Shown piece by piece: positions 2,157-6,138 of a DNA stretch of 10,495 nt (positions are counted from its first letter, which is position 1; the number at the start of each line of letters is the position of its first letter). This DNA comes from a virus (Duplodnaviria > Heunggongvirae > Uroviricota > Caudoviricetes): IMG/VR virus record IMGVR_UViG_2671181188_000007, one strand, 5' to 3'. The notes beneath the pieces were generated by a model, which made no database searches, was not told the origin of the DNA, and worked only from the letters and a program-made list of their open reading frames with translations. The translations under genes were made by a program, and so were the position numbers.

Positions 2157-2346
2157 ACTGCAGGCGCTGCGTCAGGCGCGCCTTGATTTATTAACCGGTA
2201 AACGGGTGGTGTCTGTCCAGAAAGATGGTCGCAGAATTGAATATACGGCGGCTTCTCTGGATGAGCTTAACCGGGCGATCAATGATGCGGAGTCGGTACT
2301 GGGGACAACCCGGCGTCGCCGTCGTCCGCTGGGAGTGAGGTTATGA
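2140..2346 (+). CDS. W: Head-tail joining / head completion protein (lambda gpW-like)
   Basis: 68-aa ORF with GGAGGAG ribosome-binding site upstream. MVTVAELQALRQARLDLLTGKRVVSVQKDGRRIEYTAASL.. matches lambda gpW (..[24 protein letters not shown]..). Its stop overlaps the portal start (ATGA). Confidence 0.9.
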   Translation: MVTVAELQALRQARLDLLTGKRVVSVQKDGRRIEYTAASLDELNRAINDAESVLGTTRRRRRPLGVRL

Positions 2347-3935
2347 AACGAACGCCTGTCCTGATTGATGTGAACGGCGTTCCGCTTCGTGAGAGTCTCA
2401 GCTACAACGGGGGCGGTGCAGGATTTGGCGGGCAAATGGCGGAGTGGTTGCCACCGGCGCAGAGTGCCGATGCGGCCCTGCTGCCCGCGTTGCGTCTGGG
2501 GAATGCCCGGGCAGATGATCTGGTGCGCAATAACGGAATAGCGGCCAATGCGGTGGCACTGCATAAGGATCACATTGTCGGGCATATGTTTCTTATCAGC
2601 TACCGTCCGAACTGGCGCTGGCTGGGGATGCGGGAGACCGCAGCAAAAAGCTTTGTCGATGAGGTGGAGGCGGCCTGGTCGGAATACGCCGAAGGGATGT
2701 CTGGCGAGATCGACGTGGAAGGAAAACGCACGTTCACGGAATTTATCCGTGAAGGTGTGGGCGTTCATGCGTTTAACGGCGAAATCTTTGTGCAGCCGGT
2801 CTGGGATACGGAAACCACGCAGTTATTCCGTACGCGTTTTAAAGCCGTGAGTCCGAAACGGGTGGACACGCCAGGACACGGTATGGGGAACCGTTTTCTG
2901 CGGGCCGGGGTGGAGGTCGATCGATATGGCCGTGCCGTTGCGTACCATATCTGTGAGGATGATTTTCCTCGCTCCGGGAGTGGACGATGGGAACGGATCC
3001 CGCGTGAACTTCCCACCGGGCGTCCGGCCATGCTGCATATTTTCGAGCCGGTGGAGGACGGGCAGACCCGTGGGGCCAACCAGTTTTACAGCGTCATGGA
3101 ACGGCTGAAGATGCTCGATTCCCTGCAGGCAACACAGCTTCAGTCGGCCATTGTGAAAGCCATGTATGCAGCGACGATTGAAAGTGACCTTGATACCGAA
3201 AAGGCCTTTGAATATATCGCCGGTGCGCCGCAGGGGCAGAAGGATAATCCGCTTATTAATATTCTGGAGAAGTTCTCCAGCTGGTATGACACGAATAACG
3301 TGACGCTGGGTGGTGTCAAAATTCCGCACCTTTTCCCCGGGGATGATCTGAAACTACAGACTGCGCAGGATTCAGACAATGGATTTTCGGCGCTTGAACA
3401 GGCGCTGCTGCGGTATATCGCCGCCGGTCTTGGCGTTTCCTACGAACAGTTGTCCCGTGATTACTCGAAGGTCAGTTATTCAAGTGCCAGGGCCTCTGCC
3501 AATGAGTCGTGGCGCTATTTTATGGGGCGGCGAAAATTTATTGCGGCCCGGCTGGCCACGCAGATGTTTTCCTACTGGCTGGAAGAGGCACTTCTTCGGG
3601 GGATTATCCGTCCGCCACGGGCGCGTTTTGATTTTTATCAGGCGCGATCAGCCTGGTCACGGGCAGAGTGGATTGGTGCCGGAAGAATGGCCATTGACGG
3701 GCTCAAGGAGGTTCAGGAATCGGTGATGCGCATTGAGGCCGGACTGAGCACGTATGAGAAAGAGCCGGCGCTGATGGGCGAGGATTATCAGGACATTTTC
3801 CGCCAGCAGGTCAGGGAATCTGCAGAGCGGCAAAAAGCCGGACTCTCACGTCCGGTGTGGATAGCGCAGGCGTATCAGCAGCAGATAGCGGAGAGTCGCA
3901 GGCCGGAAGAGGAGACAACACCCCGTGAGACGTAA
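2343..3935 (+). CDS. B: Portal protein (lambda gpB-like)
   Basis: 530-aa ORF in the position and of the size of lambda gpB (533 aa), immediately after W and before the protease/scaffold gene. The start overlaps the W stop. Confidence 0.9.
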   Translation: MKRTPVLIDVNGVPLRESLSYNGGGAGFGGQMAEWLPPAQSADAALLPALRLGNARADDLVRNNGIAANAVALHKDHIVGHMFLISYRPNWRWLGMRETAAKSFVDEVEAAWSEYAEGMSGEIDVEGKRTFTEFIREGVGVHAFNGEIFVQPVWDTETTQLFRTRFKAVSPKRVDTPGHGMGNRFLRAGVEVDRYGRAVAYHICEDDFPRSGSGRWERIPRELPTGRPAMLHIFEPVEDGQTRGANQFYSVMERLKMLDSLQATQLQSAIVKAMYAATIESDLDTEKAFEYIAGAPQGQKDNPLINILEKFSSWYDTNNVTLGGVKIPHLFPGDDLKLQTAQDSDNGFSALEQALLRYIAAGLGVSYEQLSRDYSKVSYSSARASANESWRYFMGRRKFIAARLATQMFSYWLEEALLRGIIRPPRARFDFYQARSAWSRAEWIGAGRMAIDGLKEVQESVMRIEAGLSTYEKEPALMGEDYQDIFRQQVRESAERQKAGLSRPVWIAQAYQQQIAESRRPEEETTPRET

Positions 3936-5430
3936 TCTTTCACACATTATTGCCGCAGCATTCAATGAACCGCTGCTTCTGGAGCCCGCCTATGCGCGGG
4001 TTTTCTTTTGCGCGCTCGGGCGCGAGATGGGGGCAGCAAGTCTTTCGGTACCACAGCAGCAGGTACAGCTTGATGCTCCCGGAATGCTGGCTGAAACGGA
4101 CGAGTACATGGCCGGAGGTAAACGACCGGCCCGTGTTTACCGGGTGGTGAACGGTATTGCTGTACTGCCGGTGACCGGCACGCTGGTGCACCGGCTGGGG
4201 GGTATGCGGCCATTTTCCGGAATGACAGGCTATGACGGCATTGTCGCCTGTCTTCAGCAGGCAATGGCGGATAGCCAGGTGCGGGGCGTACTGCTGGACA
4301 TTGACAGTCCGGGCGGGCAGGCCGCCGGCGCGTTTGACTGCGCTGACATGATTTACCGCCTCCGTCAGCAGAAGCCGGTCTGGGCACTGTGCAATGACAC
4401 GGCCTGTTCTGCAGCCATGCTGCTGGCGTCGGCCTGCTCCCGACGGCTGGTTACCCAGACATCCCGTATCGGCTCCATTGGCGTGATGATGAGCCATGTC
4501 AGCTATGCCGGTCATCTGGCGCAGGCCGGTGTGGATATCACGCTGATTTACTCAGGGGCGCACAAGGTGGATGGCAATCAGTTTGAAGCCTTACCGGCAG
4601 AGGTTCGCCAGAACATGCAGCAGCGCATTGATGCGGCGCGCCGGATGTTTGCCGAAAAAGTGGCCATGTTTACCGGTCTGTCTGTTGATGCCGTCACGGG
4701 AACAGAGGCCGCCGTTTTTGAAGGTCAGTCCGGCATTGATGCCGGGCTGGCGGATGAATTAGTCAATGCGTCGGATGCCATCAGTGTGATGGCCACGGCG
4801 CTGAACAGTAATGTCAGAGGAGGCACTATGCCGCAATTAACTGCAACGGAAGCCGCCGCGCAGGAGAACCAGCGAGTGATGGGGATCCTGACATGCCAGG
4901 AAGCGAAAGGACGTGAACAGCTTGCCACGATGCTGGCAGGACAACAGGGCATGAGCGTTGAACAGGCCCGGGCGATTCTGGCCGCGGCGGCACCGCAGCA
5001 GCCGGTGGCATCCACGCAGAGTGAAGCCGATCGCATTATGGCGTGTGAAGAAGCGAACGGTCGTGAACAACTGGCGGCAACGCTGGCGGCGATGCCGGAG
5101 ATGACGGTGGAAAAAGCCCGCCCGATCCTGGCTGCTTCACCGCAGGCGGATGCCGGACCCTCACTCCGTGATCAGATCATGGCACTGGATGAGGCAAAAG
5201 GGGCTGAGGCGCAGGCTGAACAGCTGGCTGCCTGCCCGGGAATGACTGTGGAGAGCGCCCGGGCTGTGCTGGCTGCGGGATCAGGTAAGGCAGAACCGGT
5301 CTCTGCATCCACAACCGCCCTGTTTGAACGCATCATGGCGAACCATTCACCGGCTGCGGTACAGGGTGGCGTGCCACAGACGTCAGCAGACGGTGATGCG
5401 GACGTGAAAATGCTCATGGCCATGCCATGA
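3925..5430 (+). CDS. C: Head maturation protease / scaffold (lambda gpC-like, ClpP/S49-type serine peptidase fold) with C-terminal scaffolding region
   Basis: GTG start at 3925 preceded by GAGGAG at about 3908-3913. The N-terminus ..AAFNEPLLLEPAYARVFFCAL.. matches lambda gpC (..MAFNEPLMLEPAYARVFFCAL..). The centre (GIAVLPVTGTLV...LLDIDSPGG...AGAFDCADMI...KPVWAL...SRRLVTQTSRIGSIGVMM...ITLIYSGAHKVDGN) is the conserved peptidase core. The start codon is less certain than the gene call. Confidence 0.88.
   Translation: MRRNLSHIIAAAFNEPLLLEPAYARVFFCALGREMGAASLSVPQQQVQLDAPGMLAETDEYMAGGKRPARVYRVVNGIAVLPVTGTLVHRLGGMRPFSGMTGYDGIVACLQQAMADSQVRGVLLDIDSPGGQAAGAFDCADMIYRLRQQKPVWALCNDTACSAAMLLASACSRRLVTQTSRIGSIGVMMSHVSYAGHLAQAGVDITLIYSGAHKVDGNQFEALPAEVRQNMQQRIDAARRMFAEKVAMFTGLSVDAVTGTEAAVFEGQSGIDAGLADELVNASDAISVMATALNSNVRGGTMPQLTATEAAAQENQRVMGILTCQEAKGREQLATMLAGQQGMSVEQARAILAAAAPQQPVASTQSEADRIMACEEANGREQLAATLAAMPEMTVEKARPILAASPQADAGPSLRDQIMALDEAKGAEAQAEQLAACPGMTVESARAVLAAGSGKAEPVSASTTALFERIMANHSPAAVQGGVPQTSADGDADVKMLMAMP
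4828..5430 (+). CDS. nu3: Nu3-like scaffolding protein, nested in-frame within the 3' part of gene C
   Basis: In-frame ATG at 4828 with a strong Shine-Dalgarno GAGGAGG at 4816-4822 lying inside the C reading frame. Same arrangement as lambda C/Nu3. The product corresponds to the repeat-containing C-terminal region. Confidence 0.6.
   Translation: MPQLTATEAAAQENQRVMGILTCQEAKGREQLATMLAGQQGMSVEQARAILAAAAPQQPVASTQSEADRIMACEEANGREQLAATLAAMPEMTVEKARPILAASPQADAGPSLRDQIMALDEAKGAEAQAEQLAACPGMTVESARAVLAAGSGKAEPVSASTTALFERIMANHSPAAVQGGVPQTSADGDADVKMLMAMP
4873..5292 (+). repeat. Three diverged tandem copies of a ~47-53-aa scaffold module within C/Nu3 (intragenic protein-level repeat)
   Basis: Translation shows RVMGILTCQEAKGREQLATMLAGQQGMSVEQARAILAAAAPQ / RIMACEEANGREQLAATLAAMPEMTVEKARPILAASPQA / QIMALDEAKGAEAQAEQLAACPGMTVESARAVLAAGSGK. 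Unit starts are near 4873, 5032 and 5173. Boundaries are approximate. Confidence 0.7.
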
Positions 5431-5466
5431 AGTCAGTGCTGACCATCAACAGGAGGTTTTTACAAT

Positions 5467-5814
5467 ATGGTAACGAAAAACATCACTGAACAGCGTGCGG
5501 AAGTACGTATTTTTGCCGGTAATGATCCGGCTCATACCGCCACAGGCAGCAGCGGGATTTCCTCGGCAACACCGGCACTGACGCCCCTGATGCTGGATGA
5601 AGCCAGCGGGAAACTGGTGGTCTGGGACGGACAGAAAGCCGGTAGTGCAGTTGGCATACTGGTACTGCCGCTTGAAGGCACAGAGACGGTACTGACCTAT
5701 TACAAGTCGGGGACCTTTGCGACGGAGGCAATCCGCTGGCCTGAAAGTGTGGATGAACACAAAAAGGCAAATGCCTTTGCCGGCAGTGCCCTGAGTCACG
5801 CGGCGCTGCCGTAA
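5467..5814 (+). CDS. D: Head decoration protein (lambda gpD-like)
   Basis: 115-aa ORF with AGGAGG ribosome-binding site upstream. ..NDPAHTAT...TPLMLD...KLVVWDG...AVGIL...YYKSGTF...AFAG.. matches lambda gpD motifs (..SDPAHTAT..TPLMLD..KLVAWDG..AVGIL..FYKSGTF..AFAG..). Confidence 0.92.
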   Translation: MVTKNITEQRAEVRIFAGNDPAHTATGSSGISSATPALTPLMLDEASGKLVVWDGQKAGSAVGILVLPLEGTETVLTYYKSGTFATEAIRWPESVDEHKKANAFAGSALSHAALP

Positions 5815-5871: not shown

Positions 5872-6138
5872 ATGGGATTGTTTACGACCCGCCAGTTACT
5901 CGGTTATACCGAACAAAAAGTGAAATTTCGTGCGCTGTTTCTGGAGCTGTTTTTCCGCCGTACGGTGAATTTCCATACCGAAGAGGTGATGCTGGACAAA
6001 ATTACCGGAAAAACGCCGGTGGCGGCCTATGTCTCTCCGGTTGTTGAAGGAAAAGTGCTGCGTCATCGCGGTGGTGAAACCCGCGTGTTACGTCCGGGCT
6101 ACGTCAAGCCGAAACACGAATTCCCCTGGAGCCGGTAA
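5872..6138 (+). pseudogene. E: Major capsid protein (lambda gpE-like), N-terminal ~83 codons only; truncated by a deletion
   Basis: ATG at 5872 with an RBS. MGLFTTRQLLGYTEQKVKFRALFLELFF...[31 protein letters not shown] matches the lambda gpE N-terminus (MSMYTTAQLLAANEQKFKFDPLFLRLFF...[31 protein letters not shown]). Homology stops at KPKHE and the ORF ends 5 codons later; lambda gpE is ~341 aa. Confidence 0.85.

Follow-up and report, generated by a model that had tools for sequence, protein, structure and literature searches.

Three tandem Nu3-type modules in the C-like protease and scaffold gene of a phage-21-like prophage

How a lambda-type scaffold and the protease nested with it are held in the procapsid is still undefined at the level of residues, and the conserved Nu3 module is the obvious candidate. 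The question takes a concrete form in a 10,495-nucleotide stretch of Caudoviricetes DNA (IMG/VR record IMGVR_UViG_2671181188_000007; hereafter the window), whose C-like gene encodes the hallmark of lambda-type C/Nu3 proteins, the module EAKGRE..LA..MTVE.AK..LAAAP, three times. What is this triplication, how old is it, and what would three modules do in an assembling procapsid? We read the gene as a phage 21-type C/Nu3 gene with three modules, which would act as the procapsid attachment element of both the protease and the scaffold (rough probability 0.6).

A repeated module in the protease and its nested scaffold

The C-like gene and its parts lie in the window as follows.

3925–5430, plus strand: C-like gene (homologue of phage 21 gene 5), 501 residues, an S49 prohead protease fused to a scaffold region (open reading frame (ORF) listing, Pfam, PHROG, identity to phage 21)
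4132–4818, plus strand: folded protease core, about residues 70–298 (AlphaFold predicted local distance difference test (pLDDT), SppA matches in the PDB)
4817–4823, plus strand: Shine–Dalgarno sequence GAGGAGG of the nested scaffold gene, read from the sequence; corresponds to the ribosome-binding site of gene 6 annotated in GenBank M81255.1 and OL657228.1
4828–5430, plus strand: nested in-frame scaffold gene (phage 21 gene 6, Nu3-like), 200 residues, start Met302; maps onto the gene 6 coding sequence (CDS) of phage 21
4864–4998, plus strand: module 1, residues 314–358 (Smith–Waterman, hidden Markov model (HMM)); counterpart of the single copy of lambda
4999–5022, plus strand: linker 1 (QPVASTQS), predicted flexible, pLDDT <50 at residues 357–364
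5023–5145, plus strand: module 2, residues 367–407 (Smith–Waterman, HMM)
5146–5163, plus strand: linker 2 (ADAGPS), with a pLDDT dip to ~69
5164–5289, plus strand: module 3, residues 414–455 (Smith–Waterman, HMM)
5290–5427, plus strand: C-terminal tail, residues 456–501, which opens with a module-start-like motif and is otherwise predicted to be disordered

The modules are clearly repeats of one another: pairs of them align with Smith–Waterman local scores of 87–101, compared with 25–26 ± 5 for composition-matched shuffles (z = 12–16), and 0 of 2000 shuffles reach the score of a module pair. With an HMM made from the modules, the 501-residue protein yields exactly three domains of 76–82 bits each, and it is matched in three separate places by each of the profiles phrog_8399 and phrog_8940 (“head scaffolding protein”, a lambda-Nu3-like “capsid assembly protein”). 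The copies share 45–61% of their residues and start 53 and 47 residues apart, one repeat unit being ~40 folded residues plus a linker of 6–8 residues; module 1 carries an N-terminal extension, ENxR[VI]MGIL, as does the copy in lambda. Self-BLASTP of the whole 501-residue protein returned the identity match only, and Pfam assigned the module to no family. Helix-hairpin-helix (HHH, PF00633) was rejected as an assignment, as it matched module 3 only, at 13.1 bits against a cut-off of 24 (E = 0.093).

A sequence-only reading of this DNA had placed three tandem modules at 4870–5300 (residues 316–459), in the C-terminal third of the C frame that is common to the nested Nu3-like product. That placement stands, with boundaries of 4864–5289 and with phage 21 gene 6 mapping onto the nested frame behind its Shine–Dalgarno sequence; the motif skeleton that it gave is essentially correct, and the internal repeat is significant in the module-wise self-comparison. 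Its explanation of the length difference from lambda gpC (501 versus 439 residues) by extra copies is right in part: two units add ~100 residues, but the linker between protease and module, Ser/Thr/Ala/Asp-rich in lambda, is ~35–40 residues shorter in the window protein and offsets this to a net +62. Apart from these differences and the single module of lambda gpC, the two systems have in common the order of portal, C/Nu3, D and E genes, an S49 core, and modules of one family (the lambda copy is 58% identical to module 1); in both proteins an xxR[IL]M motif and an acidic tail follow the module or modules.

In the window this motif reads LFERIMAN (5320–5343, residues 466–473), resembles the start of a module once more after module 3, and contains a short DNA repeat, D1, at 5325–5339. 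A similar motif follows the single module in lambda (ALDRLMQG), N15 and phi80 too; it could be left over from an old partial duplication or have a function of its own. A fourth full module in the tail (residues 456–501) was ruled out, since the tail scores z ~0 against the modules and has only the start motif FERIMA in common with them.

The modules follow an S49 protease. Pfam Peptidase_S49 (PF01343) matches residues 146–293 (E = 2.8e-35; 122 bits against a cut-off of 24.9), phrog_53 (“head maturation protease”) matches the 501-residue protein, and SppA chains from the PDB align to residues 77–290 (E = 5e-16). Downstream of this core the window reads GAGGAGG-CACT-ATG, with the ATG at 4828, where phage 21 annotates the start of gene 6 and its ribosome-binding site (~4817–4821); Met302, the predicted nested start, falls in a disordered hinge (residues 298–305), and N15 gp6 begins at the equivalent GGTMP hinge. 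The module region is thus probably also made separately, as a Nu3-type scaffold that would begin at Met302. In RefSeq (NC_001416, CDS 5132–5737), the lambda nu3 gene begins at residue 239 of gpC, which falls within a helix predicted for the protease domain; the gene 6 starts of phage 21 and N15 are at the disordered GG(T/R)M hinge, and in lambda a start there, at Met309, would give 131 residues. The annotated lambda nu3 start may not be equivalent to the gene 6 starts of phage 21 and N15.

AlphaFold2 models of the 200-residue nested product (12-sequence alignment) and of the full 501 residues (40 sequences) agree with each other. The S49 core (~residues 70–297) has pLDDT >90 over most of its length, and the hinge (residues 298–305) and the end of the tail (residues 474–501) fall below 50. 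Helices are predicted at residues 307–323, 331–339 and 345–354 in module 1 (pLDDT 84–87), at 367–373, 381–388 and 395–404 in module 2 (84–89), and at 414–419, 428–435 and 442–453 in module 3 (84–88); each module is modelled as a short helix, a one-turn helix, a helix of 8–9 residues, a loop of 5–6 residues and a helix of 10–12 residues. The modules are modelled as independent units without mutual packing (predicted template modelling score 0.28, with low-confidence linkers), in a monomer prediction that is blind to intermolecular contacts. Each module is accordingly modelled, and predicted, to fold alone as a small three-helix unit, the three being joined by flexible Pro/Ala/Ser/Gln linkers as beads on a string behind the S49 core.

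The scaffolding protein of phage P22 carries a basic helix-turn-helix coat-binding domain at its extreme C-terminus, and other phage scaffolds have analogous domains. The sequence-only reading had proposed structure prediction to see whether each repeat unit forms a helix-turn-helix like that of known capsid-binding domains in scaffolds; helices 2 and 3 do form a predicted helix-loop-helix, but each unit has three helices, and comparison of the modules with the P22 domain by sequence and fold gave no match. As small helical units in the C-terminal part of the protein, the modules resemble the P22 domain as a functional analogue only: they are tandem, neutral or acidic rather than basic, and do not sit at the extreme C-terminus. 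Tandem three-helix bundles also occur on bacterial surfaces (protein A domains, albumin-binding GA modules, Ebh/Embp repeats), again as a structural analogue only.

The family consensus of the module is R-I-M-G-I-L-x-C-x-E-A-K-G-R-E-x-L-A-x-x-L-A-x-x-P-G-M-T-V-E-x-A-K-x-I-L-A-A-A-P, and I7, E12, A13, G15, R16, E17, A20, L23, A24, M29, A34, L38 and P42 are near-invariant in 158 family modules. Module 3 departs from it at R16, which is Arg in 95% of these modules: residues 426–431 read EAKGAE, where the family reads EAKGRE. Salmonella and Trabulsiella homologues retain the Arg in their third module, and EAKGAE may mean that, in the phage 21 lineage, constraint on the third copy has loosened. The net charges of modules 1, 2 and 3 are 0, −3 and −2, and the 46-residue acidic tail comes next.

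The Tri boxes of phage 21 and the age of the triplication

The C-like gene is 98.6% identical in its bases to gene 5 of phage 21 over 1506 bases (100% coverage), and 491 of the 501 residues of the protein are identical to the gene 5 product, with one of the ten substitutions (A373V) in module 2; full-length identity to phage 21 and to relatives such as ev017 and PhiR57_1 is 98.6–98.7%. The original paper on the phage 21 head genes is reportedly that of Smith and Feiss, which appeared in Gene in 1993.

GenBank M81255.1 (“Bacteriophage 21 head gene operon”) lists three repeat_region features in gene 6, annotated “function unknown; putative”: its Tri1 box maps to window 4895–4998, inside module 1; its Tri box to 5035–5145, inside module 2; and its Tri3 box to 5176–5289, inside module 3. 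The translated boxes are the cores of modules 1–3. Because the feature table of this record lists them, the triplication had been described before; to judge from these mapped positions, the modules of the window are the Tri1, Tri and Tri3 boxes, a feature already known from the phage 21 record. Genes 5 and 6 of phage 21 (head-tail preconnector and scaffold; also in OL657228.1) agree with the window gene in the nested start, the positions of the three modules, the linkers and the tail; phage 21 is viable, whereas the prophage that carries the window copy has its terminase gene frameshifted and its capsid gene truncated. Our finding leaves the current understanding unchanged, as the deposited record of the phage 21 head operon already documented the feature and the window copy sits in a dead prophage; what is added over the known Tri boxes is a copy-number census, an age for the triplication and a fold prediction.

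The listing of the Tri boxes as repeat_region features of unknown function could mean that they act as DNA or RNA, for example in RNA structure or as sites of protein binding or recombination, and on the opposite strand of the scaffold region OL657228.1 carries two CII-site matches, which are pattern-only. The copies themselves argue against this: they are only 53–67% identical in their bases, different codons are used for 56–58% of the residues that are identical between copies, and conservation follows codons and amino acids. Furthermore, a DNA repeat search gave no tandem repeat but only seeds of 12–22 nt, the longest ones shared by the copies being 12–15 nt, Tandem Repeats Finder reported nothing, and the window has no Rfam match. 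We regard a DNA- or RNA-level role as extremely improbable, and the codon analysis effectively refutes it. The low base identity and the differing codons point instead to an old duplication that has been conserved as protein.

The same conclusion follows from comparison among genera. Modules 1, 2 and 3 of the window are 85, 76 and 60% identical to the modules at the same positions in a Salmonella homologue, and 50–52% identical to their own neighbours; modules are matched by position across the homologues of E. coli, Salmonella, Trabulsiella and Providencia. As the same-position modules are closest across genera, the triplication predates the split of the E. coli, Salmonella and Providencia phage lineages, with modules 2 and 3 as the additions; module 1 corresponds to the single ancestral copy seen in lambda, N15 and phi80. 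Modules 2 and 3 arose when the module was duplicated in frame, long ago, in an enterobacterial lineage that carried 21-type head genes, and they have been retained since then as protein sequence. The Gifsy-1 protein and the prophage proteins of Trabulsiella and Providencia likewise carry three modules in the same order, each best matched at its own position; they differ from the window protein in overall sequence (~58–71% identity) and in having GRE in module 3, compared with GAE in the phage 21 lineage. The view that the copies are strongly diverged in DNA and stem from an old duplication rather than from recent slippage, which the sequence-only reading had put forward, is borne out by the base identities, the codon analysis and the same-position match to Salmonella.

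Copy number among relatives and the role of the modules

How general are three modules? A profile of the three window modules was compared with 1.84 billion cluster representatives and matched 438 proteins at E ≤ 0.001; copies were counted on 143 proteins, those newly listed within the best 150 of the 438, with one copy in 138 and two or three in the other five. In 80 loci of species-representative genomes, 68 have a C homologue with one module, one has two (Buttiauxella) and five have three (E. coli, Shigella, E. albertii, Trabulsiella and Providencia); the six without a module comprise four that are truncated or at a contig end, and Hahella and Pokkaliibacter, which have a different C-terminal region. 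Among phages, lambda (439 residues; a single HMM domain, at gpC residues 357–401), N15 (447) and phi80 (447) have one copy each, and the Gifsy-1 homologue of Salmonella (498) has three. These counts uphold the earlier suppositions that lambda carries the motif once and that the triplication is an expansion, not a general architecture. Three-copy C proteins adjoin capsid genes that are closest to phage 21 gp7, and in long single-copy proteins the median distance from the end of the last module to the C-terminus is 52 residues.

The survey also returned C, D and E genes of lambda type from unrelated organisms, on contigs that are short and of low coverage (loci L105–L113, L131, L151–L153 and L161; Neobacillus, Chromatium, Kitasatospora, an Akkermansia metagenome-assembled genome, Shewanella, Oceanobacillus, Paenibacillus and others). 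They show the same tblastn identity to the query (54%, mostly with E = 2e-127) and the same capsid-protein score (455 bits), and are almost certainly lambda DNA contamination of the assemblies.

Close relatives, taken as proteins 81–99% identical to the window protein, fall into length classes. The 501-residue class has three modules. A 482-residue allele (P0129, L089–L091) lacks 19 residues that correspond to residues 386–404 (window 5080–5136), the second half of module 2, and so has ~2.5 copies; it is very widespread in E. coli (indexed in 3592 blocks of an assembly collection) and lies in complete-looking head-tail clusters of Nu1, A (642 residues), W, B, C, D, E (342 residues), FI, FII, Z, U, V, G, T and H. 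A class of 451–452 residues has two modules, whose junctions are hybrids of modules 1 and 2 or of modules 1 and 3, and its 451-residue allele adjoins a full-length capsid gene; a 551-residue class has four modules with a hybrid module 3/2 junction. A few obvious fusions complete the list. Other amplifications are recent and independent: in an E. coli protein with four copies (P0027), copies 2–4 are 81–86% identical to one another. Three modules are found in 77 of 79 complete close homologues from viral contigs, and in the phage collection 19 records cover at least 87% of the gene (17 over its full length), every one of which aligns in a single piece with a length difference of at most 6 bases, which means three copies in each.

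Such alleles allow a deflationary account, in which unequal in-frame recombination makes the array grow and shrink, a single module suffices, and modules 2 and 3 serve mainly as a tolerated spacer. Lambda, N15, phi80 and most of the family function with one copy; E. coli holds versions of the same gene with two, ~2.5 and four copies, of which the two- and 2.5-copy alleles lie beside full-length terminase, portal, D, E and tail genes; and module 3 has lost the otherwise conserved Arg at R16. Against mere redundancy stand a module consensus that has been kept in modules 2 and 3 despite heavy synonymous divergence, position-matched modules in four enterobacterial genera, which indicate long purifying selection, and the prevalence of three copies in the phage-collection records and viral contigs. 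We consider this account a minority possibility. On much the same footing stands the tentative proposal that module number is a tunable valency by which scaffold and protease are attached to the procapsid interior.

We favor attachment itself as the role of the module. In the interaction map of lambda, Nu3 interacts with E, C, B (the portal) and itself (PMC3224144); because the region that protease and scaffold share has no conserved folded element other than the module, these interactions make the module the best candidate for the procapsid contact. The module would then be the element that most likely holds both proteins in the assembling procapsid: it would bind the E-type capsid protein and/or the portal and other scaffold molecules, and this attachment would precede degradation of the scaffold by the protease. 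Three modules on flexible linkers would make the attachment multivalent. The sequence-only reading had suggested that multiplied modules could alter scaffold–capsid stoichiometry or binding, which is speculative.

The same interaction data could be taken to mean that the module is a unit of scaffold self-association (Nu3–Nu3 and Nu3–C) and not a binder of capsid or portal, in which case tripling would alter the oligomer order of the scaffold. Both the Nu3–Nu3 and the C–Nu3 interactions are reported for lambda (PMC3224144), and the module is the only folded conserved element common to the C and Nu3 products; against this reading, the AlphaFold models show modules that do not pack on one another, although a monomer cannot test intermolecular contacts. 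We judge self-association as the sole function to be unlikely.

Several observations weigh against procapsid attachment by the modules. They are neutral to acidic, and the 46-residue tail after them could equally be the capsid-binding element. The module, the E-type capsid protein, the portal and the D protein are co-inherited in nearly all surveyed loci, and this co-inheritance means that gene context cannot tell capsid from portal as the partner of the module. Relatives with two, ~2.5 and four copies exist, the first two in apparently intact head clusters, so that the exact number may not matter. Finally, the prophage that carries the window copy is itself defective.

With the natural two-, 2.5- and four-copy alleles at its side, the tripled version provides a cheap genetic handle on whether valency matters. 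If the valency proposal is true, the natural alleles, with two, ~2.5, three and four modules in E. coli prophages and one in lambda-type relatives, form an allelic series, along which scaffold occupancy, protease dosage per procapsid or assembly fidelity would vary.

The defective prophage around the gene

The window is a lambdoid head-tail gene block, in which the following genes accompany the C-like gene (all from the ORF listing).

170–511 and 462–2156: terminase large subunit, in two overlapping ORFs
listed between terminase and portal: W-like gene
2343–3935: portal gene
5467–5814: D-like decoration gene
5872–6138: E-type major capsid gene, an 88-residue stub
listed after the capsid gene: tail genes

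The order portal, C/Nu3, D, E of lambda-type head genes is thus present with E truncated, and relatives keep the order intact. The segment 4800–5430 is 100% identical to E. coli O157:H7 chromosomes and is present in 1870 of 5426 complete E. coli genomes; in strain PV15-279 (O157:H7), NCBI marks the terminase gene “frameshifted” and annotates an incomplete capsid gene. The capsid ORF ends after 88 codons, and alignment with an intact relative (L089) shows that ~2.5 kb have been deleted: the remainder of E, FI, FII, Z and U, and the extreme start of the V-like tail tube gene. The junction lies at ~6113–6122, with an overlap of ~10 bases. As this deletion truncates E, the prophage cannot make its own capsid, and the window copy of the C-like gene belongs to a defective, phage-21-like prophage of O157:H7 type.

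The split of the terminase gene (within 170–2156) coincides with a G10 run at 487–496, where an intact relative reads GGGGGTGGT, one base shorter; it is a +1 frameshift at a homopolymer, and either a pseudogene or a sequencing error. Two runs of N in the tape-measure gene (ORF from 7726), at 9212–9227 (16 bases) and 9392–9405 (14 bases), translate as XXXXXX and are masked or unresolved sequence. Opposite the module region lie two minus-strand ORFs, at 4725–5036 (103 residues) and 5172–5423 (83 residues), which nothing marks as genes; ORFs of this kind commonly arise opposite a coding strand that is rich in GC and Ala.

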